Of a stretch of DNA of 64,000 bases, positions 38,963 to 64,000 are shown piece by piece. Below the pieces are notes generated by a model. It was not told the DNA's origin and ran no database searches. It was given only the letters and a program-made list of their open reading frames with translations. Position numbers and translations under genes: made by a program. The DNA comes from Cytophaga sp. Its GTDB lineage: Bacteria > Bacteroidota > Bacteroidia > Cytophagales > Cytophagaceae. Position 1 is the first letter of the stretch; each line of letters opens with the position of its first letter. The DNA lies in contig NZ_JBQCDF010000135.1 in the NCBI RefSeq assembly GCF_051961495.1, positions 1,372 through 65,371 of the forward strand, written 5' to 3'.

Positions 38963-39117
38963 GAGAAAACCAGTAACATATTGATTTGCAAATACACAAA
39001 AAATAAATACTGAAACAAATTAATTCAATAAACTATATAAGTGCTTTTTTCAATTTGAGTTTGTCTGTGCATTGACGTACCTTGTACAATCATTTACAGA
39101 GAGAAATAACCGCCTTG

Positions 39118-46655: not shown

Positions 46656-49600
46656 ATGAATTTTACTACTGGTTCAATGCTGTTATTGCGTTTTTTTACT
46701 TTTGATAATAAAGCGGAATATATTCTCAAAGTTGCAATAATCTTATTTGTTTGTTTTTCATCAAACATCTCCTCAGCCCAGATAAATGCATTAGCAAAAA
46801 CGCAGCGCACGCTTTCTTCTGCGCAGACTGTAGTAAGTAAGGCCCAGGATTATGTTGGTATCATCGATGGCGCTGTTCAGAAAGTAAAAGACAATAATCT
46901 TTATAAAGCATTAGTCGACGGTAAAGAATTTACTTTTCCAATAGCGATTATTCCGCCTTCGGGAGATAAGAACTATGCGATCGTGATCAACAAAGTTTTT
47001 ATGGATCCGGATGGCATGTATGCGGAAGTATTTTTGAAAGTTCCTGTTTCATCAGATAAACAATTATATTTTTTAGCGGACCGTGTGCCGTATAGCCGTA
47101 CAGGAGGTTTTGCGGGTGACCTGAAATTGTATTTATTAAAAACAGATTCCTTTCAGGTTGGTAAGGGATATAATGTACAGTTTGACGGATTAGAGAAAGC
47201 TGGCGAAGACAAAAGCTGTTCAGTAACATTTAACTGTAAGGGATTTAAAGAAGCTACACTGGCAGGTGCAATCAACTTTGATCAGAGAACCATTGTAACA
47301 GATCAGGATACCAAAGGGAAATTGTCTGTCTTGTATTATGTAAACGTAGACAAGTTTTCAAACTTAATTATTCAGGTAGATCAGATACCGACATTTGAGT
47401 TTACAAACCTGCCGGGTTTTAAATGCTCTGTGCCCAAATTTACACTTGATCACAGTGATCTGAAAAATGCTCCGTCCTTTACATTACCAACCTGGTACAA
47501 AGATTCAGTAACAGCGATCATTAATAAAAACAGCGGCGGCGCTGCTGCAGACTTATCTACGAGTAATGCCGTTGATGGTCCGCAGTGGCAGGGCATCTAT
47601 ATACCCAGTATTACCATTGACATACCGAAGGCCTTTAAGGAAAAAAGTCCGAATGAGGTTGTAGTCATTGATTCAAGAGATCTTATCATTGATGGGAACG
47701 GGTTTACCGCGCTTACAAGTGCGAAAGGAAAAAACAACACACCTTTTTATGACGGAACAATCAAGAGCTGGGAATACCGGATTGATTCACTGCGCCTGAA
47801 TTTAATTGCGAGCAGCCTTTCTTCAGCGGGTTTTTATGGAGGTATAACATTGCCGATCAGTAAAAAAGAAACGCAGGTAGACTTCGGACTTTTACTGACA
47901 AAGAATATTGCCGACAGCGACATCCGTTATTCCGGTTATGTGGGAGTTGGTACGATTGACGCGCAGGCATTCGGCGTCGCTAAAATACGACTGGATCATA
48001 CACTAATAAATTTTAATTACTACCAGAAACAATTTACACCTACTGTAACCATAACAGGTAACCTGCGGCTTACTCCTAAGAAAAAAGGTGAATCCGATGG
48101 TGCCAAACCTACGGCAGGCTTTGGATTGGATTTTGCAAACTTAGTGATTGGTTCCAAAGCTCCTTATATAAGCATTGATACAGCCAATGGCGGTTATTGC
48201 CAGATGTCTTCCTCCGGACAGGCTTTGTCTAATTTCCCTGTTAAGATTACCGCTGCAAAACTTATTACCGAACCGGGTGGTCAACGTTTGGGCTTGAGAA
48301 TAACGCTGGTTGTTCAGTTCCAGAAATCCGGCAGCGGAGACTCGGCACCACCTGCAGCTACAGCCAGTACAGGAACAGCTCCTAGCTCACCTCCGCCTGC
48401 GGCTCCTGCAGCACAGTCAAGTGAAACCGGCGGTGATGGTTTTGGCGGTACTGCAACATTTACCATATGGACAAAACGGAATGCTTCTACAGGTAAGTGG
48501 GAATATGATGATTTTTCTCTGGACAAGATCGTTATCAAAGTTGACAACGATGCCTTTAAACTATATGGAGAGCTAACAAACTTCAAAAACGCTAAAGTAT
48601 ATGGAACAGGTTTCTGCGGATATATAAGCCTGACCATCATGAAAGGTAAACTGAAAGTAGAAGTGGCCGCTATCTTTGGAAGAACAGGAAATGAAGCCGT
48701 ACCGGATATTAATACAAACATAAATCCTGCGGCATTGACTGATGCCACCGACAGTTACCGATACTGGTTTGTAGATGCGGGTGTTACACTGCCGGTGATT
48801 CCGGTAGGGCCGTTTGTCGGGATCAACGGCTTTACAGGGGGATTGTATCACCACATGGCTATGCAGACACCAACGAGTCCGGCTCCGGATACGGACGTAG
48901 AATGTAAAACAACTTCGGGATTATACTACCTTCCGGATGATGGTGTCCATCTAGGTTTACTTGCTGGTATTGGTCTGCAGTCTGTGCCTACTGATGCAGT
49001 ATTTAATGGTAAGATCAACCTTGGTATGGAATTTAACAACAGTGGTGGTTTGCTTACATTCTCATTCTTCGGGGAAGTTACTATTTTAACACCTCCGGTA
49101 CAGGCCCCTGCAGTAGCGGATATGAAAGGGAAAATGCAGCCTGATAAACTGAGTGGTCTGTCAACACCAGCGAACCAGAAAGCAATTAAAGATGAAAAGC
49201 CATCAGAGTCGACCGGTTCTGTAAGAGTAAAATGGTTTACACAATATGATTTCAGAACAGAGACCTTCATCGGGGATTTTGATGTTTTTGTAGATGTAGC
49301 AAGTGTTGTTAAAGGTGGAGGCCCTGATAACAGGGCGGCACATATTGCTGTCTTATTCTCTCCTCAAGGAAAGTATGTATACATGGGAACTCCGTCAGAT
49401 CCTGCTTCCATTGAAGTAATTGATCTGTTCGAATGCCAGGCATATTTCTGTGCGGGGAACGTATTGCCAAAACCACCGATCATGCCGTTGCCAGACGAGT
49501 TTGGTCCGGCACCAATCGATTACAATGCGATGGAAACCGGAGCAGGTCTTTCTTTTGGAGCGCGTGTAAGCATTGATGGTAAATTTGGTGGTAGTGCTGA

Positions 49601-51293
49601 CTTTTTGGGCTGTTCGGTAGAACCTTATGCTGAACTATGGTTAAAGGCCGGCTTTGATATTCTGTTGACACAAACATCAAACCCGGTTCAATGCCAGGAT
49701 GGTCCGAGAGGGGTAAACAATTGGTATGCGACCGGACAGGCATTCATCATGGGTGGAATCAATGTAGGTTGTAAATATGACTGTACGATTAAGTCCGGTG
49801 ATTTCACATTGGTTTCGGCTTCTCTTTCTGCATATGTATTTGCGCAATTACCAAAACCAAGTTATATGGTTGGTTCTGTTACAATCGAATTTGAATTATT
49901 GGATATCGTTGGCGGTAGTGCAACATTCAAAGTTAAGTTTGGTGACGAATGCACCAAACCTGAAAATGATAAAAACATTGTATTCATAGAATCGATAACC
50001 CCAACCAGCGGCTCATCCAATATTGCGGTTACAGATAATGTAGTGGTAAATTTTGTCAAACCGATTGAGAACTTCAAGTTCTCGTTGCCTGATGAAAATG
50101 ACGGATCCAAAATGGTACAGTACAGAGGCTTCGTTGGGCCGAATAATGTAACCCTGAAATCAAATGGAATACCCGTTCCATTCACATTTAAATGGAACAG
50201 TTCAAAAACAAACCTTACGATTGTTCCTTCCAAAACTTATGCTGAAAATGCTACGGTTGAAGTAATCGTAAAAGTGGACCTGCAATACTATGCGAACGGA
50301 CAGTGGACTCCATCAACTAAAGTGGAGGTAGATACTTCAATCTTTAAAACGAAGTTTGAACCGTATAAGATTGAAGTAGCCAATGTGGAATATGCCTATC
50401 CAATGGTGGGCATGGAGAACTATTACAAAAGCGAAAGTAATAATGGATATATAAAATTATTGTCTGTGCCGAACAAGCCGATGCGCCTTGCTCCGAATTT
50501 TTCATACAAGATTGTATTCCTTGAAAGTGGCAAGGAAGTCGCATCCGTAGCAAATGTCACGATGGATAAGACGCCCGGGAGTGATAACTTTACTTACATG
50601 ATTCCGAACGGTGTTTTCCAGAACAGCAAATCATACACGTTCCAGCTGAAAAAAATATGGAACACCGAACAAACCAGGGATACCGGAGTGGAAGGTGACG
50701 ATACGAAAACAATAGGTACTTATGCGCAGACTCCGGAAGATACTATTATTCTGGAGTATGACTTCACAACAAGTAAATTCAGTTCATTCGCACAAAAGAT
50801 TGCTTACTACAACCAGCCATTGATAGAAGCATCCGGATTAAATGTTGTGCATACACTTGCCCCGAATCAGAAAGATGTTGATGCAGGCAGCGCGGAAGGG
50901 CTTTCGACGCTGGAAACAAACGGTAAAAAGGTTTTAAACGTAACCTACTCGCGTGAATTGGTGCGGGGCATTGGTGCTGACTTATCACAAGGCTTTTTAA
51001 GCGGCCAGCAATTACCGGATAGTATTGACTACAGTTATTTCTCAAACAAACTTCGCGTGCAGTACGATGTGTTCAGTGAGCTTAAACGCCTTAATGATCA
51101 AAACAGAGCTGCGGGTATCGTTTGTACCGTGCAGCAAAGCCAGGCAAATTGCAGTGCCGGCGGCGGCTCTTCAACATTCCCTAAAGGATCAACTTATTAT
51201 TACAGGTTAGGATATTTCTTACCAGGGAAAGATATTAAAACGTCTGAAGTAGTTCTTAGCTTCACATTACCAAATGATGTTACGGTTCAATAA
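46656..51293 (+). CDS. Large exported beta-rich hypothetical protein (1545 aa) with a C-terminal Ig-like region
   Basis: Hydrophobic signal-like segment (ILKVAIILFVCFSSNISSA); long Gly/aromatic beta-strand stretches; Ala/Pro linker; ESITPTSGSSNIAVTDNVVVNF resembles an Ig-like (Big_5/SbsA) domain start. Confidence 0.8.
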   Translation: MNFTTGSMLLLRFFTFDNKAEYILKVAIILFVCFSSNISSAQINALAKTQRTLSSAQTVVSKAQDYVGIIDGAVQKVKDNNLYKALVDGKEFTFPIAIIPPSGDKNYAIVINKVFMDPDGMYAEVFLKVPVSSDKQLYFLADRVPYSRTGGFAGDLKLYLLKTDSFQVGKGYNVQFDGLEKAGEDKSCSVTFNCKGFKEATLAGAINFDQRTIVTDQDTKGKLSVLYYVNVDKFSNLIIQVDQIPTFEFTNLPGFKCSVPKFTLDHSDLKNAPSFTLPTWYKDSVTAIINKNSGGAAADLSTSNAVDGPQWQGIYIPSITIDIPKAFKEKSPNEVVVIDSRDLIIDGNGFTALTSAKGKNNTPFYDGTIKSWEYRIDSLRLNLIASSLSSAGFYGGITLPISKKETQVDFGLLLTKNIADSDIRYSGYVGVGTIDAQAFGVAKIRLDHTLINFNYYQKQFTPTVTITGNLRLTPKKKGESDGAKPTAGFGLDFANLVIGSKAPYISIDTANGGYCQMSSSGQALSNFPVKITAAKLITEPGGQRLGLRITLVVQFQKSGSGDSAPPAATASTGTAPSSPPPAAPAAQSSETGGDGFGGTATFTIWTKRNASTGKWEYDDFSLDKIVIKVDNDAFKLYGELTNFKNAKVYGTGFCGYISLTIMKGKLKVEVAAIFGRTGNEAVPDINTNINPAALTDATDSYRYWFVDAGVTLPVIPVGPFVGINGFTGGLYHHMAMQTPTSPAPDTDVECKTTSGLYYLPDDGVHLGLLAGIGLQSVPTDAVFNGKINLGMEFNNSGGLLTFSFFGEVTILTPPVQAPAVADMKGKMQPDKLSGLSTPANQKAIKDEKPSESTGSVRVKWFTQYDFRTETFIGDFDVFVDVASVVKGGGPDNRAAHIAVLFSPQGKYVYMGTPSDPASIEVIDLFECQAYFCAGNVLPKPPIMPLPDEFGPAPIDYNAMETGAGLSFGARVSIDGKFGGSADFLGCSVEPYAELWLKAGFDILLTQTSNPVQCQDGPRGVNNWYATGQAFIMGGINVGCKYDCTIKSGDFTLVSASLSAYVFAQLPKPSYMVGSVTIEFELLDIVGGSATFKVKFGDECTKPENDKNIVFIESITPTSGSSNIAVTDNVVVNFVKPIENFKFSLPDENDGSKMVQYRGFVGPNNVTLKSNGIPVPFTFKWNSSKTNLTIVPSKTYAENATVEVIVKVDLQYYANGQWTPSTKVEVDTSIFKTKFEPYKIEVANVEYAYPMVGMENYYKSESNNGYIKLLSVPNKPMRLAPNFSYKIVFLESGKEVASVANVTMDKTPGSDNFTYMIPNGVFQNSKSYTFQLKKIWNTEQTRDTGVEGDDTKTIGTYAQTPEDTIILEYDFTTSKFSSFAQKIAYYNQPLIEASGLNVVHTLAPNQKDVDAGSAEGLSTLETNGKKVLNVTYSRELVRGIGADLSQGFLSGQQLPDSIDYSYFSNKLRVQYDVFSELKRLNDQNRAAGIVCTVQQSQANCSAGGGSSTFPKGSTYYYRLGYFLPGKDIKTSEVVLSFTLPNDVTVQ

Positions 51294-51299
51294 ATAGAA

Positions 51300-53366
51300 A
51301 TGAAAAAATTAATAGGAGTACTTTTATTACTTGTCTTTGCTTCCGCTTCATTTGCGCAGGGTTTGGACAGTATTGGTTTGATCTCAAATGTTTCAGCTGA
51401 TAAAGTTCAATTAAAATGGCTGCCTTCAAATTATAAAACCTGGGTAGAAGGTATTAATAACGGATATATGATTGAGCGTACGGAGGTAAAGGCAGTAAAC
51501 GGTAAGTGGGTAATTGTACAGAAAGAAACGCTTACTGCAGAACCATTGAAACCATGGTCGTCTGAAAGAATAACGGAAGAAGCAAAAACCAATCGGGATG
51601 TGGAGAATGCAAAGATTGTGATTGCCACACGCATCATGGAAGAAAATGCAAAACCTGCAACATCTCTCTCTGCTACATCTGAGCTGCAGTCTCAAAAGGA
51701 TTACCTGCACGTAATATCCTTGCTGGGGAGTTTGCTTAAAAATAAATCTTCTGAAGCAATGGGTTTATACTATGAAGATAAAACAGCCATAACAGGTAAA
51801 ATTTATTTTTATGAAGTAACATTAAACAATGCAAAAAAAATAAAAGCTCGAACCGTAGTAAATACAGGTGTACCGGAAGTATTACCCAAGGTACTGGGTT
51901 TTGATTATAAGAATACAGACAAGTCTGTTGAATTGTACTGGATACAGCCGAAGTACTCCGGTTATTTTGCTTACAACATTTACCGTTCAACAAGTAAGGG
52001 GGGAACGTTTGAGAAAGTAAACAAAGACCCATACATAGGTGAGGTTGCTATTACAGCAGATGAAAAACGCATACGGTATATTGATTCATTTCCGGAAATG
52101 AATAAAACATACTACTACAAAGTACAAGCTATTAACGGGTTTGAAAAACTGAGTCCGTTTACAGAAGTGCTAACGGTGAAGTCATACGCCTTTCTTTCGG
52201 CAGCGCCTACGATTACCAGCTCGTTCTCTCCGGATAATTCTGCGATTGAACTGGAATGGATTGTGCCGCCGGCAGATGTGGAAAGTATTACTTCATTTTC
52301 CGTGTGGACCGCAAACGAACCGCTTGGACCGATGACTAAAGTGAACACGAAGCCGATAGACGGAAAGATATATAAATATGTTGACCAGACACCGGGCAAA
52401 GCAGTGTTCAATTACTATAGAGTATGTTCGTACGGCTACTTTAAAGATTCCATCTGTTCGTTGGTTAAAGAAGGATTCCTGGTCGATTCCATTCCACCGG
52501 CACCGCCAACAATTGTTACCGGTATTTGTGATACCAACGGAGTGGTAACGTTGCATTGGAAAAAATCCAAAGAAAAGGATATCTACGGTTACCGCGTGTA
52601 CCGCACATTCTACAAGCATCATGAGCCGATCCGGAGAACCGATACAACCATCTTTGATACAACGTTTGTAGAAACCGTTGACTTGAAAGCCGGCTGGAAA
52701 AAAATGTATTATGCAGTAGTTGCCGTAGATCAGGTATATAATGCATCTTATATCTCACCTTACTTTGAAGTACCGCTGCCGGATAAAATTCCACCGATCA
52801 ACGGAATCTTCACCAATTATGAAGCAACGTATTCAGGTATTTTGCTGGAGTGGAAACCAAGCCCTTCAAAAGATGTGAAGTATACCTATATCTATAAAAA
52901 ATCCGAATTTGATTTTCAGTGGGTGCCGGTTGCAAAGCTTACAGGCACAGATGCACTGCAGCGGACAAAATTGCGTGATACGCTTACACAATCCAACGTA
53001 TGGTATGAATATCGCCTGGTCGTGGAAGATTCTTCAGGCCTGCAGTCAAAAGATGAACAGCGCCTGCGTATACAGCAGCCGGAGAAAGATCCCTTTCCTG
53101 TGGTGACCAATCTGCGCGCGGTGATGAGCAGGGAAAATAAAATGGTTAAGCTTTCATGGGACTTTAATAAACCAGCGAAAGGATTTAAGATCATGCGTTC
53201 TCAAAACGGAGCGCAGGTTGAAACCTATGAATTTGTTGCAGGTACGAAGAGAGAATACTACGATACCTGGCTAACTACCAATACAGAATATTCCTATGCG
53301 ATTATTGCAGAACTGCCTGATGGCAGAATCTCTGTAATGAGTACAGTCATTAAAGTAAAATACTAA
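51300..53366 (+). CDS. Exported fibronectin type III repeat protein
   Basis: Signal peptide; repeated V.L.W...Y.IYR...Y.D...YYY.V motifs (VELYW..YNIYRS, IELEW, VTLHW..GYRVYR, ILLEW, VKLSW). Confidence 0.88.
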   Translation: MKKLIGVLLLLVFASASFAQGLDSIGLISNVSADKVQLKWLPSNYKTWVEGINNGYMIERTEVKAVNGKWVIVQKETLTAEPLKPWSSERITEEAKTNRDVENAKIVIATRIMEENAKPATSLSATSELQSQKDYLHVISLLGSLLKNKSSEAMGLYYEDKTAITGKIYFYEVTLNNAKKIKARTVVNTGVPEVLPKVLGFDYKNTDKSVELYWIQPKYSGYFAYNIYRSTSKGGTFEKVNKDPYIGEVAITADEKRIRYIDSFPEMNKTYYYKVQAINGFEKLSPFTEVLTVKSYAFLSAAPTITSSFSPDNSAIELEWIVPPADVESITSFSVWTANEPLGPMTKVNTKPIDGKIYKYVDQTPGKAVFNYYRVCSYGYFKDSICSLVKEGFLVDSIPPAPPTIVTGICDTNGVVTLHWKKSKEKDIYGYRVYRTFYKHHEPIRRTDTTIFDTTFVETVDLKAGWKKMYYAVVAVDQVYNASYISPYFEVPLPDKIPPINGIFTNYEATYSGILLEWKPSPSKDVKYTYIYKKSEFDFQWVPVAKLTGTDALQRTKLRDTLTQSNVWYEYRLVVEDSSGLQSKDEQRLRIQQPEKDPFPVVTNLRAVMSRENKMVKLSWDFNKPAKGFKIMRSQNGAQVETYEFVAGTKREYYDTWLTTNTEYSYAIIAELPDGRISVMSTVIKVKY

Positions 53367-53431
53367 CCGGCAATACCTAAGCGCAGTTTAGCTATGCGTT
53401 TAAGCGAATGAAAAATTTAACACACAGAAAA

Positions 53432-56400
53432 ATGAGACACTTCATTTCAACCGTTATTTTGTTTTTAGCATTGATTTTTTCAAATACACTTTTGGCTAAA
53501 GTGTATTATGTCAATGCAAATTATACCGGCTCAACACAAAACGGTAACAGCTGGACTACGCCATTCAAAACCATTGAAAAGGCCCTTACCGTAACGGTAG
53601 ATGGTGACCAGATCTGGGTAGCGAAGGGAACGTATACTACTCCTAACTACAAAAGTGCTTCCGGTTACTTCATTAATAATGGCATTACCATTTATGGCGG
53701 TTTTGCAGGAACAGAAACCAGTGTTTTTGCCAGAGATCTTGCTTTAAATAAGTCGATTATTCAGACATCAAATACTTCAAACATCTTTAATATAAAACAG
53801 AATAAAGATTTTATTATTGATGGGGTAGACCTGACAAGTTTTGGTACTGCTCTTTTTATCCAGTACGATACAATTGCAACTGCTTATAATATTCAGTCGG
53901 GAGACCGGTTTAAGGTAACACTTAATAATTGTAATATCTATAATGGCCAGGCCCCTGCATCTTTTTATCACCACGTAGACCTGAAAATTACTAATAGCCA
54001 GATTTACAATTGCCAATCCAACTTTTATATCTCGGAAGACAATTCATTGAACGATTTTTATGCACCTTCTACGGTTACATTTGAAAACACAATAGTTCAG
54101 GGAACAAACACGCTGATGTATTCTGTGAATGCGCAGTTGAATATGATCAATTGTAGATTTTCGAATTTTAATTCAACAATGTTCCCCAGCTCGAGCGGCA
54201 GGGATGTGATATTTAAAGGCTGCGAATTTAAAAATATTTCAAGCCAGATTCTTACAAACGATAACACTTCGGTAACGATTGACAACTGTACGTTTGAGAA
54301 TCTTAATAATGGCCCGATATTTTATAGTTCAAATACTAACATATTCAATATTTCAAACACAACTTTTAAAAATTCTACCTGCAGTCAGATTTTTATTTTA
54401 AAGACTTTATCATTAGATAATGTCACATTTTCAAACATCAATTTTAATTACCAGGGAATAATGGCGAACGGACCGTTGAAAATAAAAAACTCAACAATGG
54501 AAAATGTCCATACGCTAAATTATTACTTCATGGACGCGTATTCTGATGTTGAGCTGGACAATGTAACGATACAAAATTGTGTTGGCCCATTGTTGATGGA
54601 AAATAAAGATACCAGTGATGTACTGATTAAAAATGTAATCTTTCAAAACAATTCACAGGACTTTAATGAGCAAAAAGGAATGTTTTTTAACCTGGCAGGA
54701 AATGTAGTTATTGATCAATCGCAATTTTTAAACAATGAAATCAGAAGATCAAACCTGGGATACAGTATGGGTTTGTTTACTGTAAGCACATCTTTAGAAG
54801 TAACAAACAGTACTTTCAAAGATAATGTAAGCAATAATGTTGCGGGTGTATTTTATTCATCAGCGAATAATTTGCAAATCGATAATTGTGTATTTGAAAA
54901 TAATGTTTCAGAATATCAGTTCGGTTATTCAACGGTTGGTACGGGTGTTCTGTATTCAACAGGATATAATAACGAGGATGCAAAGATTAGCAACACAAAA
55001 TTCATTAATAATTCAGCCTACAATTTTGGTGTGATCAACTGGGTCGGAAGAGATCTTATTATTGAAAATTGTATTTTCCAAAAGAATAAATCAATCGCAA
55101 CGGCCCGGGGATATATGGGCGGCGGTTTTAATAGTGGTGTGATAGGAACGTTCGGTATTGCTTACCCATATGTGGGAAGCATTACGACAATAAAGAAATG
55201 TTCGTTCAGTGAAAATGAATCGATATTTGATGCTCCAGTCATTTATGCTAGTAACATGTCGGCGTTGTACGTTGATCAATCTTCTTTCAATAATAACAAA
55301 TGTCGGGATGGAAGCGGTGCAATAACTACTGTAAATGTAGTGTTTAAAGTCAGCAACTCACTTTTTGAAAATAACCAAACACAAAATGCAACATTTGGTG
55401 TAATAAATAACTCAGCAAACAACACACAGTATGGTCCGTATCCTGCAGAAATATACAACAGCACATTTGTAAAAAATACTACTACCGGCGGTCCGGGTGT
55501 ATTATCTGTGAGTGTACCTACAACCATTGCCAATTCGATCTTCTGGGGCAACGGAACAAATGCACCTATCATCGCGGGTAGTGTAACTCCGGTAATTTCC
55601 AATACATCTGTACAGGGAGGGTTTTCAGACGGTACAAAAATTTATGATGCAAACCCTAAGTTCATTGATTTCATCGGCGGCAACTATCGCTTGTCGTGCC
55701 AGTCACCATTGATCAATAAAGGAAATAATGCATTAGGTGTTTCTTTATTTGACCTGGATGGAACAGCCCGTATTTTTGCCGATACTATAGATTTAGGCGC
55801 TTACGAGACGCACATAGATCCGGCTCTTGCAAATGTGATTCCCGCACCAACGTTTATCGTCCCATCAACCGTTTGTAAAGACGAGGTAATTAACCTGGTA
55901 AATACTACAGCAAACCTTTCTAACTATACGTATCAATGGACATATGGCAACGACCAGAAGTCTACGTTGATCAATCCAAGCTATGCTTATGCGCAGGCAG
56001 GTACATATACGATTACATTAACTGCATCAAACTTTTGCGGTCAGTCAAATTCTTTATCCAAACAGATAATAGTAAAAACGGTTAACACACCAATTATTGA
56101 AACTGTTTCTGTTGTTTGTCCGGGAACAGAGCAAACCTATACAACGAATGCAACATGTCAGAATATTTTATGGACAGTTGCAGGAGGTACAATTCAAAGC
56201 GGACAGGGAACAACGTCTGTTCGTATTCTTTGGGGTGATGGCACAACGGGAAATGGAAAAATTACATTGCTGGCAACCGGCTGCGGCACGGGCGCGTGTG
56301 AAATTCCTGTAAGTGTTGAAGTGCCGATTGTTCCGGCAAACTTTACGTTGACAGGACCGGATAAAGTTTGTCAGGGTGGTTTCTCTCATTATGAAACAGT

Positions 56401-59400
56401 AGTTAAAGATAAATCACCGGCATCTCTTTATACTTGGTCTGTTAAAGGCGGATCAATCAGCTCGGCTATAAACAAAGGGTATAACCTTACAGATATTGAT
56501 ATTACCTGGAGTACTTCTCTTACTGAAGGAACAGTATATTTAACAACATATAATGAATTATTGAAATGCGGTAAAACAGATTCCTTTAAGGTAGCGCTTA
56601 GACCAACCTTTAAAATATCCGGAGCAACAGAAGTTTGTACAAATGCATCTACCGTATACCAGACAGTACCTTCTATCGGTACTGTACGATGGCAGGTAGC
56701 TGGTGCAGGAAATACGATAAACAGTACAACAGGTACTGCAACCTGGGGAAATGCAGACGGTGTTTACAAGCTTACGGCCGGTCCTGCGGACCCGACAACT
56801 GCGTGTAATGCACAGGATACATTTGTGGTACACGTAAACGCGAAACCGGTTGTAACGGCTATTGCCGGTGAAACGGAGCTGGCAGTAAATTCAATAGATG
56901 TATATACCGGCCTGGTAAATACAGATATCAATAATGTTGATTTTTATTGGTCGTCTCCGGGTGGCACGATCGCTTCTGCATACCTGAACACCGTTACCAT
57001 TCAGCGAAATAGTTTTTCACCGGATTATATTGCATTGAGTGTTGCAACAAAAAAAGGCGCTTGTACTTCAGCTGAGCTGCAGATACATGTAAAAAAATTA
57101 TTTGATTATACAATTACCGGTCCGGATACAGTTTGTATAACAACCAGCGCAACCTATACAGCAAATGTAAACCCGGGTCAAACGTCAGACTATTCCTGGA
57201 TACTGAATCAGCAGGGTACTCCTGTTAACGGAATAACTTTTAACCCATTGTTTAACTATACCGGATATCAGCAGATCGAACTGAAGGTTCACAGCAACGG
57301 TAAAGAATTTATTGTGCGTAAAAATGTATATGTAAAATCTTCTCCATCCAGTATCACGGTTGAAGGTCCGGTTGTTATTGATCCTGCGGGATTACAGACT
57401 GCTGTATATACAGTTAAAAACTTTGCAAATTCGAATTACATTGTAACGGTTACCGGAGGTGTTTTACAATCAAACATCAGTAACCAGCTTACAGTTAAAT
57501 GGGGTGGTACAGAACCCTTCTCTATTCAGGTACAGGATAAATTTGCATCTCCTGCTTGTAATGGTGTACCGATGACCCTGCAGGTTAAGAAAGCTGCGGA
57601 TATCGGTAAAAATATTATTGCCAGCGCGCCTGCCTGTTTAAACGCAAGGGTTGATTATTCTTTCCAGCCGGATGATCTGACTAAAAATTTATCATGGAGC
57701 ATTGATGGCGGCGGCAGTATTACAAGCAGCGCTCAGAATTCTGTTACGATAGAGTGGAATCAAACAGGCACACATACATTAACATTAACCTATGACCGTT
57801 TTGGTACACAAACGATCCAGGTTCCAATTGTTGTAAATGTATTGCCTTCACCGGTTATTAACCCGGGAACAATTTGCGGAAGCAACAGCCTGAATATATC
57901 TACGACACAGGCATACAATGCGTATGAATGGTATCTGAATGATGCGAAAACCGCATTCTCCGCACTACCAACACCGGCGGTTAATACAGAAGGTTTGTAT
58001 ACAGTAAAGGTAACTGATAATAATGGCTGTATAAACTCTTCCACCAGATACATCAAACAATTACCGCTGCCAAAGGCATCTATCTTTACATTAGACGAAG
58101 TTGTGGTTTGTACGCAGGCTACAGCAGCACTTACAAATATTAAGTTATCTACTTTCGAAGGGCAGGATTATGTTTATCAATGGTATGAAAATAATGTGCC
58201 GGTATCAGCTCCTCTTGCTACACCATTCAGTCTTCCGGTACAGAAACCATTAAATCAGGAAGCCATATATGCGTATAAAGTTAAGGTTTCTTTAGAAAGC
58301 TGTGTACAGTATGCTGATGTTAAGAATGTAATTGTAAAATCCTGCGCGGGCGGCGGCGGCGGTATTGGCGGTGGCTGCAGCGATCCCGGGGTTTCATTTA
58401 CAGTGGATCAGAATTCATTATGTCAGCCGTTTAAGTTTAATGCTGATCCGTCTATTGCCGGTTTATCAGGACTTGGCTGGGATTTCGGAGATGGATCAAC
58501 AGCAACAGGTCCTGCACCGACATATAAATACCAGGATGCTGGTATTTATAATGTGCAATTGACAAGAGGCTGCAGGTATGATAGACAACCTGTAAAAGTA
58601 CTGGCTCGTGCGATCTTTAAGCTTGACCAACCGGGGTGTGTTGGAGATACATTGGTATTTAATGATCTGTCAGTTAACATTCCTTCCAATAAAATCATCA
58701 GCTGGAAATGGAACTTTGGTGACGGTTCGCCGGAAGAAACCTATTCAGGCAGCGGAGACCGCAACGGGAAACATAAATACACGACCGCTAACTCATACAC
58801 CGTAACATTAACGGTGTATTCGCAAAGCGATAATGCTGCACTACCAGTTTGTGCCTTTACGACACAAAATACATATGTAATTACACCACCTCCAACAGCA
58901 GACTACATTATTACAGCTCCTGCATGTGTTGGCAATACATATAAATTTGTTGAGAAAGGTGCTTATGGCAAATATGGAAAGGCCCCGGTTAAATGGACAT
59001 TCAGCAACGGACAAACATCAGTACGTGACACTACCTTGCAACAGTTTAATCCTGGTAACCAAAACGTATTGCTTAAAGTTACGGATGGCCTGGGCTGTTC
59101 AAGCACAAAATCATCAACGATAACAGTTACTGCTCCTGCAGTACTTGGAAAAATTACGGTTACCTCAAAAGATACGCTTCTATGTAACGGCAGAAAGGTA
59201 TCGTTGAGTTCCCCTGTAACAGCGAAACTGGCATACCAATGGTATAAAGACGGAGCAGCGATTGCATCAGCTACAAATCAAACCTATGATGTTTCAACAC
59301 CAGGTAACTATAGCGTTGCCTATTGGGTTACAGCAACCTGTAATGCAACGACAGCTGCAGTTAAAGTTAATAGTTACACAGTGCCTAATTTAATTTCCGG

Positions 59401-62400
59401 AAATAAATTGAATTGTTCCGGCGGTACGTTGATGTTAAGCAGCAACCTGAGCCCATCTGAATATTCATTCATATGGAAACAGAATGGCACGAAGCTAAAC
59501 AATAACGGTTCAGACCTGGTATTGAATAATATCACAACAGCTGCTGGCGGCAATTATCAATTGACAGTTACCCAGAATACGACCGGTTGCTTTGCTACCT
59601 TGCCGGATTATACGGTAAGCGTTAGTAACCCTCCTGCCAAACCGGTTGTAAATGCTGCAGCAGTAAACATCTGTTACAATACAGCTGCTGTTTTAAATAC
59701 ACCTGTTGTTAAATCCGGGAAAACATTTACCTGGTATGAAAACGGCAGTAAGCTGGCTTTTGCGGATACAGTGATTACTACAGCACTTTTGAAAAATGAT
59801 GCGAGTTATTCTGTTACTGTAAAAGAAACGGCTACAGGCTGCTCCACGCCTTCAGATAACATAGCAATAAAAGTTGCTCCTGCTATAAGCGTTGTAATAT
59901 CAGGAGATACATCTCTTTGTGAGCAGGTATCGTCAGAACTAAAATCAAATCTCGACACCAAAGACTTTACATTCAAATGGTACAAGAATAACCAGCCATA
60001 TGGCGGTGATGTAGCCAAGCTTACATTCTCAAACATTGCGAAAGCAGATTCAGGTCAATATCAATTGCAGGTAATAAGCAAAGGAACTACAAACCTGACA
60101 GGATGTACGGCTGTTTCGAATATTAAAACAATTAAAGTTAAACCAACAGCTGCAACACCTGTTATTACAGGTGTAAGCGAATTCTGTAGTGGTAATTCAA
60201 TTGTTCTTTCTACAAACCTTACGTCTGATTTTGTTTGGAATACTGGTGCTGTTACACCTGTAATAACGGTTACTTCCGGTGGTACATACTCCGTGACATC
60301 AACGAATGTGGCCTCAAAATGTATTGTTACAGCAACTAAAACGGTTACTCAGAATCCGGTTCCGGATCTGAGCTTTGTACCTACAGGTGATTACTCAAGA
60401 TGTGGTACCAATAAAATAGCCTTTGATGGTTTGAATAATTATCCGTTACAGAGCTGGTACGTGAATGGAGTATTTTTCAGCGATAAAAAAGAAATTTATC
60501 CAACGAAATCAGGAAAATACACGCTGAAGGTTACAACAAACAAAGGATGTATAAGCATATCCGATACGATGAATATTGAGTCGCTTGAATGTCCGTGTTA
60601 TGTAACCAATGTAAATGACAGCGGCGACGGTTCATTGAGAGAAGCGATAAACTGTTCAAATAACAAACCTGGAAAAGATGTAATAAAATTCTCTATCGTT
60701 GGCACAGGTCCATTCACGATTAAACCGATTACACAGTTGCCAACATTAACAGACTCAGTTGTAATTGACGGCTTCACGCAATCGGGTGTCAACGTGTTTG
60801 ATGTGATTATTGATGGCACAAACATCTCTACGTTAAACGGTCTTGTAGTTGGAAGTGATCTGGCTAACGTAAAAATTTCAGGACTTAAGTTTTCAAACTT
60901 TACGAAAGCAATTGTTTTATCAACGAATACGCAGAACATACTTGTTGAACGTTCACAATTTACAAATAACTCAAATACGGCAGTTGAGCTTAATTATGGT
61001 TCAACTAAAAATATTGTCCGCAATAACTTCATTGATAAAGGTGCTGCAGGTATACATTTCGTAACAGGGTCCAAATACAATATCATACAACAGAACACGA
61101 TCACGAATGCTAAAAATGGTATTGCGCTGGATGGTGCAAGTTATAATAAACTGCAATCGAATTTAATTTTCACTTCATCCGGTGATGGTATTCTTATTAA
61201 CTCACAATCGACATTCAACTCGATTGTAGCCAATACGGTTGGTTCTTCCAATAATAACGGGATTCTGATTGCTCAGAACTGTAATTCAAACTCCCTGGAT
61301 TCAAATTATATTGGTATTAATGTTTCCGGAAACGTTGTATCAAATCTTGAGAGCGGAATTTATATTTCTCCAAACACCAGATATACATCAATAACAGCCA
61401 ATACAATTGGCGCAAATACACTACACGGAATTTTTGTAGAAGGTAAAAATAACCTGATCAGGAATAATTATATAGGTACAAATGTCGCAGGTAATGCAAA
61501 ACCAAATGGTGTGCATGGTATTTATTCAACAGCTGATAGTTTAAAAATAACCGGAAATACCATTAAGGCAAACAGTCAATACGGTGTTTATATTAAGGCC
61601 TCATCTGCAACGATTCTTGCAAACACTGTTACGAACAATATCAGTGGTGGTATATATATTGATGGAAGTAAAGACCGGATCTCTAAAAACATCATCACAA
61701 ATACCAATGCTACAGTTAAAGCCATTAATCTACATTTAACGGCAAGTGCAGGTAATGCTGGCAAACTTCCGGCTGTATTTAATAATTACAGAAGAGCAAA
61801 ATCCGGCGGTATTGTGTTAAGCGGTACAACAGCTGCAGGAGACACCGTTGAAATATTCGCCAACAATAACATTGCACAGCAGGCTTTATTGTTTGCCGGT
61901 GCAACAACGGCAGATGCAACAGGCTATTGGGAAATTGAAATTCCACAGGGAGCAGCATTCGATCCGAATCAGAAAAACTTCTATGTAAACACCGCAAGTA
62001 CTGGTGCGAATAATACTTCAGAATTGTCTGTACCATTCTTAACAGGTTGTTTCAATTGTGTTTGTTATGTAAAAAATACGAATGATTCCGGTATCGAGTC
62101 GTTACGTGCAACGATTGATGAATCTAATTTAGGAAACTGTCTGACGATCAAGTTTTCGATGACATCTCCTGATACCATCAAACTTCTTAGTGCCGTGAGT
62201 CCGTTGCAGGTTCCTGTATCGATTGTAGGTCCTGTTTCTGCAGGTCCGGATCCAATGATCTTTGTAAAAGGAACCGGAACATTCAATGGTCTTGTTGCTT
62301 CTAAAGACGGTGTTTCAATCAGCGATTTAGGATTTACAAATTTCAAACAGGCAATTGCACTGAATTCAAATTCGAATGCTATAACTGACGTTACAGTTAT

Positions 62401-64000
62401 AAACAGCACCAGACCAATTACCATTACAGGTAATAACTCTACAGTTGTTTCAAGTGCCATTAACACAACATGGGGAACGTCTGTCAGTACGTTTAAGGCA
62501 GACACATTGGTTTACATCACAGGTAAAGGCAACCAGGTTGGCGGAACAGACACGGGTAATAAAATTACCAATGGAAATATTGCCGGTGTGCTGGTGAATA
62601 CAGGTGCTGCAAACAGCATCTTAAACAATCAGATCACCAACAGTACGCTGGCGATCAAATTAACGAATAACGGAAATACCAATTACAGTAAACCTGCTAA
62701 CCTGATTGGTGCAATCAATGGTACGGTAGCTACTGTACAGGGAACGGCAAGTCCGGGTGCTAAAATTCAATTGTTCTCCAGTACATACGTTGCAGAGCAG
62801 GCGGTTGATTTTGTTATTGAAGTTGTTGCAGACGCATCCGGAAACTGGACCGCAGTAATTCCTTCAGCAAAAATTGACATTACCAAAAACAATTATTTTG
62901 TAGCAACTGCAACAAGTCCTACAGGCAGTACATCACAATTATCTCAGGTAGTACGTGTAGGTAATTTTGTTCAGGTCTGTTATGTGACCAATACAAATAA
63001 CGCCGGAGACGGTTCGTTAAGAGAGGCTGTTAATTGCGCCAACCAGGCAGGAATTGGTAGTAATGGTGTAGCGGCAAGAATAGAATTCCTGTTGCCGCAA
63101 ACAAACAATGAAATTTCATTGCTTTCAGGTTTGGTTGTTACAAACAATTTTGGTGTAGAAGTAAATGCACGTACAATACCTGTAACGGTTAAAACAGCCA
63201 ATACAGCGTTGAATTGCTTTAACTGGGCAACAAACAATTTCAAAGTTAAAAACCTGTCGTTTGAAAATTTTGCAAATGCATTGTACTGTACAGGAACAAA
63301 TGCAGTCATTGACTCTAACAGCTTTGTTAATAATAAGAATGCAATCTATGTAAATGCTGCAGATACAATCATCCAGCAGACAATCTCAAACAATTACTTC
63401 ACCGGCGGCACGAGCGGTATTACCAGTGTGAAAGGTTCGTTGGTTGTTGCGAAAAATGCGTTTGGTATTTCAAAAGCAGGTGTTGCCGGACAAATCTCTG
63501 GTTTTGGCGTTGCAGCCAATCACGCGCATTCTATACAATTAACGGATAATACATTTGCAAATATTACGAATAGCCCATCTGCAACAAATCCGGCAACTGC
63601 CAATGGATATGTTGTTTCCCTGGAAAATGCATCGTCAGTTGTTTCAGCGAATATCATCACAGGTACTCCTTTAACAAATTTGCCGGCAGTGAGATTGTTC
63701 GCGAATTCGAAATCAACTGTCACGTTGAATAAAATAACTTCAGCTGCAGAAGGTATCCTGTTTGATCATTGCAGTGAGGTAAACGTATATCAAAATCAAT
63801 TGGCGGCAGTTACGAACAGAGGCTTGAATCTGTTCAGAAGTCAAGGTATCAAGATCTCACAAAATACCATCACAGGACTTTTGGCAACAAAAAAACCAAT
63901 TGAACTGAATCTGTCCACAGCAAATGTTTCAAACTTCAGCAAACAGACACCGGTGATCCTTACATCTACTTACCACGATGGAAAACTTTTCCTTATCGGT
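53432..64000 (+). CDS. Giant modular secreted/surface protein (beta-helix, choice-of-anchor-Q-like, PKD and Ig-like repeats); C-terminus beyond the window
   Basis: Frame spot-checked at 53432, 55622, 60542, 62042, 62942 and 63962, all consistent. No in-frame ORF with a stop in the track. Signal MRHFISTVILFLALIFSNTLLA; KVYYVN..GNSWTTPFKTIEKAL; NPKF..NYRL..SPLINKG..DLDG..R..IDLGAYE; WDFGDG PKD motifs. Alternative ATG at 53408. Confidence 0.9.
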   Translation, partial: MRHFISTVILFLALIFSNTLLAKVYYVNANYTGSTQNGNSWTTPFKTIEKALTVTVDGDQIWVAKGTYTTPNYKSASGYFINNGITIYGGFAGTETSVFARDLALNKSIIQTSNTSNIFNIKQNKDFIIDGVDLTSFGTALFIQYDTIATAYNIQSGDRFKVTLNNCNIYNGQAPASFYHHVDLKITNSQIYNCQSNFYISEDNSLNDFYAPSTVTFENTIVQGTNTLMYSVNAQLNMINCRFSNFNSTMFPSSSGRDVIFKGCEFKNISSQILTNDNTSVTIDNCTFENLNNGPIFYSSNTNIFNISNTTFKNSTCSQIFILKTLSLDNVTFSNINFNYQGIMANGPLKIKNSTMENVHTLNYYFMDAYSDVELDNVTIQNCVGPLLMENKDTSDVLIKNVIFQNNSQDFNEQKGMFFNLAGNVVIDQSQFLNNEIRRSNLGYSMGLFTVSTSLEVTNSTFKDNVSNNVAGVFYSSANNLQIDNCVFENNVSEYQFGYSTVGTGVLYSTGYNNEDAKISNTKFINNSAYNFGVINWVGRDLIIENCIFQKNKSIATARGYMGGGFNSGVIGTFGIAYPYVGSITTIKKCSFSENESIFDAPVIYASNMSALYVDQSSFNNNKCRDGSGAITTVNVVFKVSNSLFENNQTQNATFGVINNSANNTQYGPYPAEIYNSTFVKNTTTGGPGVLSVSVPTTIANSIFWGNGTNAPIIAGSVTPVISNTSVQGGFSDGTKIYDANPKFIDFIGGNYRLSCQSPLINKGNNALGVSLFDLDGTARIFADTIDLGAYETHIDPALANVIPAPTFIVPSTVCKDEVINLVNTTANLSNYTYQWTYGNDQKSTLINPSYAYAQAGTYTITLTASNFCGQSNSLSKQIIVKTVNTPIIETVSVVCPGTEQTYTTNATCQNILWTVAGGTIQSGQGTTSVRILWGDGTTGNGKITLLATGCGTGACEIPVSVEVPIVPANFTLTGPDKVCQGGFSHYETVVKDKSPASLYTWSVKGGSISSAINKGYNLTDIDITWSTSLTEGTVYLTTYNELLKCGKTDSFKVALRPTFKISGATEVCTNASTVYQTVPSIGTVRWQVAGAGNTINSTTGTATWGNADGVYKLTAGPADPTTACNAQDTFVVHVNAKPVVTAIAGETELAVNSIDVYTGLVNTDINNVDFYWSSPGGTIASAYLNTVTIQRNSFSPDYIALSVATKKGACTSAELQIHVKKLFDYTITGPDTVCITTSATYTANVNPGQTSDYSWILNQQGTPVNGITFNPLFNYTGYQQIELKVHSNGKEFIVRKNVYVKSSPSSITVEGPVVIDPAGLQTAVYTVKNFANSNYIVTVTGGVLQSNISNQLTVKWGGTEPFSIQVQDKFASPACNGVPMTLQVKKAADIGKNIIASAPACLNARVDYSFQPDDLTKNLSWSIDGGGSITSSAQNSVTIEWNQTGTHTLTLTYDRFGTQTIQVPIVVNVLPSPVINPGTICGSNSLNISTTQAYNAYEWYLNDAKTAFSALPTPAVNTEGLYTVKVTDNNGCINSSTRYIKQLPLPKASIFTLDEVVVCTQATAALTNIKLSTFEGQDYVYQWYENNVPVSAPLATPFSLPVQKPLNQEAIYAYKVKVSLESCVQYADVKNVIVKSCAGGGGGIGGGCSDPGVSFTVDQNSLCQPFKFNADPSIAGLSGLGWDFGDGSTATGPAPTYKYQDAGIYNVQLTRGCRYDRQPVKVLARAIFKLDQPGCVGDTLVFNDLSVNIPSNKIISWKWNFGDGSPEETYSGSGDRNGKHKYTTANSYTVTLTVYSQSDNAALPVCAFTTQNTYVITPPPTADYIITAPACVGNTYKFVEKGAYGKYGKAPVKWTFSNGQTSVRDTTLQQFNPGNQNVLLKVTDGLGCSSTKSSTITVTAPAVLGKITVTSKDTLLCNGRKVSLSSPVTAKLAYQWYKDGAAIASATNQTYDVSTPGNYSVAYWVTATCNATTAAVKVNSYTVPNLISGNKLNCSGGTLMLSSNLSPSEYSFIWKQNGTKLNNNGSDLVLNNITTAAGGNYQLTVTQNTTGCFATLPDYTVSVSNPPAKPVVNAAAVNICYNTAAVLNTPVVKSGKTFTWYENGSKLAFADTVITTALLKNDASYSVTVKETATGCSTPSDNIAIKVAPAISVVISGDTSLCEQVSSELKSNLDTKDFTFKWYKNNQPYGGDVAKLTFSNIAKADSGQYQLQVISKGTTNLTGCTAVSNIKTIKVKPTAATPVITGVSEFCSGNSIVLSTNLTSDFVWNTGAVTPVITVTSGGTYSVTSTNVASKCIVTATKTVTQNPVPDLSFVPTGDYSRCGTNKIAFDGLNNYPLQSWYVNGVFFSDKKEIYPTKSGKYTLKVTTNKGCISISDTMNIESLECPCYVTNVNDSGDGSLREAINCSNNKPGKDVIKFSIVGTGPFTIKPITQLPTLTDSVVIDGFTQSGVNVFDVIIDGTNISTLNGLVVGSDLANVKISGLKFSNFTKAIVLSTNTQNILVERSQFTNNSNTAVELNYGSTKNIVRNNFIDKGAAGIHFVTGSKYNIIQQNTITNAKNGIALDGASYNKLQSNLIFTSSGDGILINSQSTFNSIVANTVGSSNNNGILIAQNCNSNSLDSNYIGINVSGNVVSNLESGIYISPNTRYTSITANTIGANTLHGIFVEGKNNLIRNNYIGTNVAGNAKPNGVHGIYSTADSLKITGNTIKANSQYGVYIKASSATILANTVTNNISGGIYIDGSKDRISKNIITNTNATVKAINLHLTASAGNAGKLPAVFNNYRRAKSGGIVLSGTTAAGDTVEIFANNNIAQQALLFAGATTADATGYWEIEIPQGAAFDPNQKNFYVNTASTGANNTSELSVPFLTGCFNCVCYVKNTNDSGIESLRATIDESNLGNCLTIKFSMTSPDTIKLLSAVSPLQVPVSIVGPVSAGPDPMIFVKGTGTFNGLVASKDGVSISDLGFTNFKQAIALNSNSNAITDVTVINSTRPITITGNNSTVVSSAINTTWGTSVSTFKADTLVYITGKGNQVGGTDTGNKITNGNIAGVLVNTGAANSILNNQITNSTLAIKLTNNGNTNYSKPANLIGAINGTVATVQGTASPGAKIQLFSSTYVAEQAVDFVIEVVADASGNWTAVIPSAKIDITKNNYFVATATSPTGSTSQLSQVVRVGNFVQVCYVTNTNNAGDGSLREAVNCANQAGIGSNGVAARIEFLLPQTNNEISLLSGLVVTNNFGVEVNARTIPVTVKTANTALNCFNWATNNFKVKNLSFENFANALYCTGTNAVIDSNSFVNNKNAIYVNAADTIIQQTISNNYFTGGTSGITSVKGSLVVAKNAFGISKAGVAGQISGFGVAANHAHSIQLTDNTFANITNSPSATNPATANGYVVSLENASSVVSANIITGTPLTNLPAVRLFANSKSTVTLNKITSAAEGILFDHCSEVNVYQNQLAAVTNRGLNLFRSQGIKISQNTITGLLATKKPIELNLSTANVSNFSKQTPVILTSTYHDGKLFLIG

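Follow-up and report, generated by a model that had tools for sequence, protein, structure and literature searches.

A frame that fills the end of a DNA stretch and meets no stop before the stretch ends raises the question of whether it is a gene at all, how far that gene extends and what kind of protein it encodes. Such a frame occurs in a Cytophaga sp. genome (RefSeq assembly GCF_051961495.1; 327 contigs, 4.07 Mb), at the end of 64,000 nucleotides (nt) of contig NZ_JBQCDF010000135.1 (C135:1372-65371; the window). It is probably the front two-thirds of one intact gene, the orthologue of CHU_3450 of Cytophaga hutchinsonii, encoding a non-enzymatic, rod-like protein of the cell surface, which is called the giant here.

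When open ends are allowed, a single stop-free open reading frame (ORF) of 3,531 codons is found at 53408..64000 on the forward strand. With an expected stop-codon frequency of 0.065 from the base composition of the window, the chance of such a run is ~1e-102. Translation from the ATG at 53432 yields 3,523 residues inside the window without a stop. A preliminary description of the stretch, made from the letters alone, had proposed an uninterrupted ORF of more than 3500 codons that the ORF track hides because no stop is reached; the frame is indeed absent from the default ORF list because it exits the window. That description would have been overturned by an in-frame stop or a frameshift inside 53432-64000, and end-to-end translation revealed neither. 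An alternative ATG exists at 53408. The ATG at 53432 is likely to be the start, because the orthologues begin at the residue matching it (MRHFIST...), and amino acids (aa) are numbered from it.

Beyond the window, 1,454 further stop-free codons lead to the end of C135 (69735), giving 4,977 aa from 53432. A tblastn search of the module region of the giant against its own assembly gave no match besides itself, because the modules are too diverged, and a profile search was needed. The profile of the C-terminal modules has one other match in the genome, C136:3-1313, which is open at the start of its contig. This piece comprises 437 aa followed by a stop; it completes a module and continues with two Cys-containing immunoglobulin (Ig)-like domains and a sorting domain. 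The C135 piece aligns to residues 1-4995 of an 84%-identical orthologue (P0003) and the C136 piece to residues 5002-5438, implying that ~6 residues (~14 nt) fall in the gap between the contigs and that the full length is ~5,420 aa. The assembly break (C135:69735 / C136:1) lies within module 6, with ~14 nt missing, and the two contigs abutted directly are out of frame (2 + 2 leftover bases). The parts of the gene are as follows, CTD denoting the C-terminal domain and T9SS the type IX secretion system.

53432..64000, +: giant gene, in-window part, the first 3,523 of ~5,420 codons; continues to C135:69735, then C136:3-1316
53432..53497, +: signal peptide (aa 1-22), MRHFISTVILFLALIFSNTLLA and then KV; read from the sequence and conserved in orthologues
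53498..55681, +: head, Pmp-like right-handed beta-helix (aa 23-750), the most variable part
55682..55831, +: choice-of-anchor Q cap (aa 751-800); NF041518 at aa 752-793, 30.9 bits against a cut-off of 25
55832..60571, +: stalk of ~19 PKD/Ig-like beta-sandwich domains of ~80 aa (aa 801-2380), many with conserved Cys
60572..62071, +: module 1 (aa 2381-2880), GSLREAI cap, NosD/Beta_helix-type helix and 90-aa beta-sandwich
62072..62986, +: module 2 (aa 2881-3185), shorter helix and beta-sandwich, from motif and profile matches
62987..64000, +: module 3 (aa 3186-3601 in full), cut by the window end, from motif and profile matches
Outside the window (C135 and C136): modules 4-6, two Ig-like domains and T9SS type A CTD
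aa 2381-5130: the six modules together, each with a cap, a NosD/Beta_helix-type helix and a 90-aa sandwich
aa 5131-5331: two Ig-like domains, between the modules and the CTD
aa 5332-5420 (C136:1047-1313): T9SS type A CTD, TIGR04183

Full-length relatives of 5,286-5,453 aa, with 37-84% identity to the giant, were returned by a database search, the closest named records being Cytophagaceae metagenome-assembled genomes and Cytophaga aurantiaca DSM 3654. Collinear orthologues with open frames of 5,271-5,460 aa and no stops are present in Cytophaga and allied genera, as checked in five related genomes and the complete C. hutchinsonii genome. The orthologue in C. hutchinsonii ATCC 33406 is CHU_3450 (5,453 aa; ABG60684.1 / WP_011586791.1 by exact protein look-up), which is annotated as "CHU large protein; uncharacterized" and is 59% identical to the giant over a 700-aa test stretch. 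It has the same domain order, length and flanking genes (CHU_3452 to CHU_3448); coming from a different species than the host, it lends a name to the giant and no function. CHU_3450 has been unstudied since the C. hutchinsonii genome was sequenced. In a survey of the family, the giant gene was found in 15 of 41 species genomes and 7 of 16 genera, and complete copies span 5,333-5,920 aa. The only clear departure in length is a 5,920-aa frame in another genus of the family (G006:C1:457467-461435), which is ~500 aa longer. In five relatives the six modules correspond 1:1 to those of the giant as orthologues (30-91% identity), indicating that the array is ancient and fixed rather than a recent tandem expansion. 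A fixed length (5,271-5,460 aa in most complete copies) together with individually orthologous modules is unusual for repetitive adhesins, and the fixed length and domain order suggest that the dimensions of the rod matter.

The domain anatomy drafted in the preliminary description was borne out, and its segment positions agree with the boundaries found to within a few tens of bases: head at 53498-55681, choice-of-anchor Q at 55685-55810, first PKD at 55832-56062, PKD run at 58376-59119, Ig run at 59138-60571 and modules from 60572. The N-terminus, previously taken for a signal peptide, reads as a Sec-type one. The head, described as a right-handed beta-helix with FxNN-type repeats, is a long helix with FxxN/GGA-type repeats (consensus NCxFxxN...GGAxY), and AlphaFold2 (AF2) modeled it from a 20-sequence alignment as one continuous helix (pLDDT 83.3, pTM 0.82). 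The cap suspected at its end corresponds to the NF041518 match above the cut-off. The head therefore has what defines choice-of-anchor Q/Pmp-like proteins, namely an FxxN/GGA beta-helix ended by NF041518, and its coils and cap are those of Pmp-type passengers with choice-of-anchor Q, although in the giant ~4,600 residues of stalk separate the head from the T9SS CTD. No curated Pmp-repeat model matched the giant at E<=0.01 in the NCBIfam-type scan.

The proposed stalk of PKD and Cys-containing Ig/PKD-like domains was recovered as matches to the Pfam models PKD_4, PKD, PKD_6, Ig_7, Ig_2 and Ig_3, and self-profile iteration detected 19 stalk domains and six sandwich caps. The second type of beta-helix, in the repeated modules, is NosD/Beta_helix-type according to both Pfam and AF2. 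The modules start with the motif C-(Y/L)-V-T-N...G-S-L-R-E-A-I at aa 2400, 2889, 3194, 3610, 4163 and 4623. In the part of the giant inside the window, Beta_helix (PF13229) matches seven stretches (1e-37, 129.7 bits) and NosD (PF05048) scores 57.7 bits (1.5e-15); in the C-terminal part the Beta_helix and NosD models score 127 and 117 bits. The AF2 model of module 1 is of high quality (pLDDT 93.3, pTM 0.91). Profile matches above the cut-off and the fold together identify right-handed parallel beta-helices in the giant. Modules 1-6 strongly match NosD/CASH beta-helix proteins (PF13229, PF05048; 'CSLREA'-type N-caps), and each has a C-x-V-T-N...G-S-L-R-E-A-I cap. In contrast to NosD, the giant has six serial modules, each ending in a conserved beta-sandwich, and neither a copper site nor an ABC-transporter context.

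Conservation is distributed unevenly along the protein. The identity of the head to mid-distance orthologues is 31-42%, with insertions and deletions, whereas most other segments show 50-79%. Among 17 orthologues, used for all counts of invariant columns, 6% of the columns are invariant in the head and 42% in the choice-of-anchor Q cap, and 38 Cys residues are invariant in the stalk. The most conserved parts of the giant are the sandwich caps and the module junctions. A fast-evolving head on a conserved stalk defines a fragment (aa 23-880) for a ligand search. The invariant residues of the helices are mostly Asn, Gly and Ile, which are structural ladder residues, and invariant charged residues are few: only R2403, D2416 and K2778 in module 1, only R3197 in module 3 and four in the head. 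That the helices keep almost no invariant charged residues argues for a structural and binding rod rather than an array of enzymes.

The preliminary description had advised extending the contig in search of a C-terminal sorting signal, and a type A T9SS sorting domain is encoded on C136. Against a TIGR04183 cut-off of 23 bits, the CTD scores 27 when the protein is scanned and 31.6 when the genome is; Pfam PF18962 gives 18.9 bits, below its cut-off of 27. A CTD above the TIGR04183 cut-off and a predicted N-terminal Sec signal peptide are the marks of a type A cargo of the T9SS. The genome contains 79 TIGR04183 matches, among which the giant is by far the largest, and 14 PorP/SprF matches. The protein itself is of an ordinary kind, a T9SS type A surface protein and the orthologue of an annotated but unstudied gene. 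In C. hutchinsonii the T9SS is functional, and anchoring of type A cargos at the outer membrane needs the CTD and WaaL/lipopolysaccharide (PMC12860637).

From these features a route to the surface can be proposed. The Sec signal peptide would carry the giant to the periplasm, where the type A CTD would pass it to the T9SS and be cleaved, and the new C-terminus would be fixed to lipopolysaccharide of the outer membrane; the domain was detected here, and cleavage and fixation are proposed because other type A cargos of C. hutchinsonii undergo them. The C-terminal end would then be proximal to the cell, and the six modules with the 19 PKD/Ig domains would make up a stiff stalk whose extended length would be well over 100 nm. 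The N-terminal head, which evolves fastest, would be the distal, ligand-binding tip, directed at a glycan, another cell or the surface of a substrate. The preliminary guess, a multivalent adhesin or glycan-binding protein, fits these data: the giant carries a signal for T9SS-dependent anchoring at the surface, its distal head varies and no catalytic residues are conserved.

Beyond what had been described previously, the locus comprises ~1,900 further codons of the giant, the type A sorting domain and a conserved multi-gene cluster with a polymorphic-toxin-like gene. This conserved and undescribed cluster is the interesting part of the finding; the giant would fill a lineage-specific cargo slot in a conserved frame of envelope genes, in which synteny is observed and a functional link is suggested by it. 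Two genes of this gene frame precede the giant.

46656..51293, +: frame gene 1, ORF for a 1,545-aa secreted beta-rich protein, orthologue of CHU_3452
51300..53366, +: frame gene 2, 688-aa secreted Fn3-like protein in the position of CHU_3451, with a signal peptide and repeated YYY(K/R)V-type strands

The 1,545-aa protein has a weak Big_5 match only in Pfam and none in NCBIfam. Its gene lies upstream of the giant at eight loci (L005-L010, L013, L014; 31-86% identity) and is also present at five other Bacteroidota loci with different cargos. The 688-aa protein matches no Pfam or NCBIfam family; its gene is syntenic at every orthologous locus (35-90%) and is also found at L087, L102-L108 and L113. 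Both upstream genes are kept at every orthologous locus examined, even where the head of the giant is ~30% identical. A divergent mfd gene is retained only in the closest relatives. On the 3' side, C136 encodes a 574-aa protein and then a 2,607-aa Fn3 protein, and both are syntenic in five relatives and C. hutchinsonii. The gaps are 6 nt between genes 1 and 2 and 65 nt between gene 2 and the giant (6, 65, 106 and 29 nt over the cluster). No terminator-like sites were found in these intergenic gaps, in a promoter and terminator scan with counts at chance level. The Cytophagaceae-type cluster also occurs in full, its frame genes 45-49% identical and its giant 5,328 aa long, on a contig (L009, CAZNHL010000029.1) whose label, 'uncultured Bifidobacteriaceae bacterium', is almost certainly wrong.

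In the 574-aa protein a signal peptide is combined with ~26 amphipathic strands, hydrophobic helices are lacking and the sequence ends in ...SYSYNF, all of which fits a large outer-membrane barrel. Pfam and NCBIfam assign neither this protein nor the CHU_3447 protein to a family, and PDB searches with the sequence of the 574-aa protein or a profile of it gave no match. A distant relationship to PorP/SprF barrels was rejected (hhalign probability 3% against the PorP/SprF set of the genome itself), as was homology between the 1,545-aa and 2,607-aa proteins (probability 0.3%). The 574-aa protein has a large family, which forms 2,237 clusters at 50% identity and occurs in 32 of 251 sampled Bacteroidota genomes (~13%). 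Around distant members, the order of the gene frame is a protein of ~1,550 aa, one of ~690 aa, a type A T9SS cargo, the barrel-like protein and an Fn3 giant. On a JGI metagenome contig (L087), a SprB-repeat protein of 1,990 aa occupies the cargo position, and different type A cargos of 1,700-2,516 aa are encoded at 6 of 20 surveyed loci (L102-L107); at L108 and L113 the gene frame has no cargo. These seven cargos share with the giant only generic Ig repeats and a ~200-aa tail before the CTD. A profile of aa 5131-5331 of the giant matches all 7 of 7 at the pre-CTD position (1e-10 to 7e-17), and the full tail is found in the giant alone within this genome. As judged from synteny, the gene frame is older than the giant, which appears as a Cytophagaceae-type payload in the cargo slot of a wider module. 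The gene frame, present in ~13% of the sampled Bacteroidota genomes, couples a tail-bearing T9SS cargo with a barrel-like protein and a polymorphic-toxin-like giant.

Several points weigh against the reading of the long frame as one gene for a surface-anchored binding rod, or against parts of it. The ~14-nt join between C135 and C136 comes from alignment to orthologues and was not read from sequence. The host T9SS is deduced from CTD and PorP/SprF matches and from the genus rather than from the core genes gldKLMN and sprA, and co-transcription of the cluster from the short gaps and the lack of terminator-like sites in them. CHU_3447 to CHU_3452 receive no mention in the searchable literature, and a search of proteomics supplementary data gave no match. 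The scarcity of invariant charged residues across the 17 orthologues is indirect evidence against catalysis; modules 5 and 6 keep 8 and 13 invariant Asp/Arg/Lys residues, and a catalytic or metal site is possible there. In addition, glycan-cleaving tailspikes and alginate epimerases are among the structural neighbors of module 1. No paper was found that combines Cytophaga, type IX secretion and beta-helix, and none on choice-of-anchor Q.

The alternative that survives best concerns the 2,607-aa neighbor and extends the binding-rod reading rather than excluding it. This protein has a signal peptide, an fn3 match of 95.5 bits and a PT-HINT match (PF07591; 75.6 bits, cut-off 27.7) ~270 aa before its end. 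Conservation at all orthologous loci (85 to 32% identity) covers the first 1,473 aa, whereas the last ~1,130 aa have no similarity even in the relative with the 84%-identical giant, and PT-HINT is seen only in the copy of this genome among the orthologues compared. No T9SS CTD was detected in it. The 225-aa ORF after this gene, without a signal peptide or a homologue at other orthologous loci, is a candidate immunity gene. It is followed by a 183-aa ORF (C136:11746-12294, +), which may be a second immunity-type gene or an orphan toxin-cassette gene; the first terminator-like site on the forward strand after the cluster is located at C136:12459-12475.

Such an arrangement recalls the loci of TANFOR polymorphic toxins, beside which T9SS substrates with SprB, PKD, Fn3 and CTD were found to be enriched (Jana, Salomon and Bosis 2020, PMC7073777). 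The supplement of that study lists toxins with signal peptide, Fn3 and PT-HINT between a domain-less ~550-aa protein and a small ORF (PMC7073777). The 2,607-aa protein shows the reported pattern beside a PKD/CTD T9SS cargo and has the secondary features of these toxins (signal peptide, Fn3, pretoxin, polymorphic C-terminus and small downstream ORF). However, the paper contains neither the 1,545-aa, 688-aa and barrel-like genes nor a 5,400-aa cargo, and the TANFOR model itself (TIGR02542) was undetected here, at E<=1 in the 2,607-aa protein and at E<=0.1 in the genome; 14 named control genomes were likewise blank, so that this result does not by itself show absence. In three other genomes TIGR02542 scores 25-36 bits, all below the 67-bit cut-off. 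Homology (9e-15) links the N-terminal end of the 2,607-aa protein to part of a different protein, and on that part the TANFOR model scores 33 bits. Classification of the 2,607-aa protein as TANFOR by its N-terminal domain was rejected. A 1,994-aa protein at L108 (G093:C6:89051-95032, -) joins a TANFOR-like N-terminus (33 bits, below the cut-off) to a body homologous to the 1,545-aa protein, and its gene directly adjoins the Fn3-like and barrel-like genes, without an intervening T9SS cargo. There are hints that proteins of the gene frame and TANFOR-type proteins may exchange parts.

On this basis the giant may serve a module for contact-dependent antagonism as its arm for adhesion or targeting, a tentative proposal. 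The T9SS-anchored rod would bind a neighboring cell via its variable head, the 574-aa barrel-like protein would export or display the Fn3/pretoxin-HINT giant, the polymorphic C-terminus of the latter would be the toxin and the 225-aa ORF would provide immunity. The position of PT-HINT, the conserved front and unrelated end of the 2,607-aa protein and its lack of a T9SS CTD all speak for this proposal, as do the solitary 225-aa ORF, the barrel-like features and large family of the 574-aa protein, the published TANFOR/T9SS neighborhoods, the homology to the TANFOR-scoring region and the specific pre-CTD tail common to the cargos of the gene frame. They are opposed by the scores of TIGR02542, which is undetected in this genome and below the cut-off elsewhere, and by the 272-aa C-terminal tail of the 2,607-aa protein, which has no Pfam or PDB match and retrieves only itself from the database, leaving toxicity putative. 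Furthermore, Pfam recognizes no toxin domain in the variable C-termini of six orthologues (five relatives and C. hutchinsonii), the barrel fold of the 574-aa protein is predicted from sequence, and gene frames without cargo exist (L108, L113). Adjacency alone is no proof that adhesin and toxin act jointly.

The likeness to CdiB/CdiA/CdiI of contact-dependent inhibition is a functional analogy only: there is a barrel gene beside a pretoxin giant with a variable tip, an immunity gene and a beta-helical filament. The 574-aa protein has no sequence relationship to CdiB and matches no Pfam family, so that no ShlB/POTRA-type barrel was detected, and no TPS domain was found in the giant or in the scanned N-terminal 1,607 residues of the 2,607-aa protein. 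Filament and toxin are separate proteins here, in contrast to CdiA, and the filament is predicted to be exported by the T9SS. A bolder and rather doubtful version holds that the giant and its four constant neighbors form an undescribed contact-dependent weapon of Bacteroidota, with interchangeable T9SS-anchored adhesins that share a docking tail and with a barrel-exported toxin released by HINT. The slot would hold the 5,420-aa rod here and SprB-repeat proteins of ~2,000 aa elsewhere, docked by the ~200-aa tail; this detail is just as doubtful. If true, it would supply the export route of TANFOR-class toxins, a question that dates from 2020. Because genetic manipulation of C. hutchinsonii ATCC 33406 is feasible, cooperation between a T9SS adhesin and a TANFOR-class toxin is testable.

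It is unlikely that the giant is a gliding-motility adhesin moved along the surface as SprB and RemA are in Flavobacterium johnsoniae. Like these proteins, the giant is very large, repetitive and equipped with a signal peptide, and it would reach the surface through the T9SS and stay attached there. A type A CTD is common to the giant and RemA, the genus glides, and SprB repeats occur in cargos of the same gene frame in other lineages. The architecture is nevertheless unrelated: Pfam and NCBIfam scans detected no SprB repeat (PF13573), type B CTD (TIGR04131) or lectin domain in the giant, and no PorP/SprF-like gene adjoins it, the hhalign result for the neighboring 574-aa protein being negative. 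The restriction of the gene to 15 of the 41 genomes and 7 of the 16 genera of a gliding family also argues against this role.

Even less probable is a stalk that displays polysaccharide-active enzymes (lyases, hydrolases or epimerases) in the form of the head, the six beta-helix modules or both. The host genus is cellulolytic, modules 5 and 6 keep several invariant Asp/Arg/Lys residues, and the structural neighbors include HK620 and CBA120 tailspike glycanases, AlgE/AlgG epimerases, GH87 and PL6 lyases. Foldseek matched module 1 to right-handed beta-helices such as HK620 tailspike, AlgE4/6, AlgG, GH87 and the adhesin PfbA with TM-scores of 0.4-0.6, and the head to generic beta-helices only; over both models the TM-scores are modest (0.2-0.6, at 8-17% identity), and no enzyme family is singled out. 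Sequence searches of PDB gave a weak NosD match only for module 1 (E 0.0017) and, for the head, only weak matches to unrelated proteins (E 0.03 or worse). Only the generic Beta_helix and NosD models match the giant; it contains no catalytic or CAZy-type Pfam family, and, modules 5-6 left aside, nothing in it identifies a lyase, hydrolase or epimerase. Modules 1 and 3 and the head are nearly devoid of invariant acidic and basic residues, and stand-alone relatives of a module carry no functional or enzyme names.

There is a negligible probability that the long frame arose as a chimera of the assembly or is a pseudogene in decay: the assembly is fragmented into 327 contigs and the gene is divided between two of them, but the giant is collinear throughout with its orthologues, which come from a complete genome and from several independent assemblies and contain no stops, and shows purifying conservation over its full length.

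Two other genes were noted. Downstream on C136, an ORF of at least 1,461 aa (L121, C136:13573-17955) is likewise interrupted by the assembly, leaving the contig end; its GH8 match of 45.5 bits and its DUF11 repeats make a cellulase-type protein of the surface the probable product. Within the window, a 459-aa ORF (39082-40461, +) matches the N-terminal part of neutral/alkaline ceramidase (PF04734, 67.6 bits), a family uncommon in soil Cytophaga.

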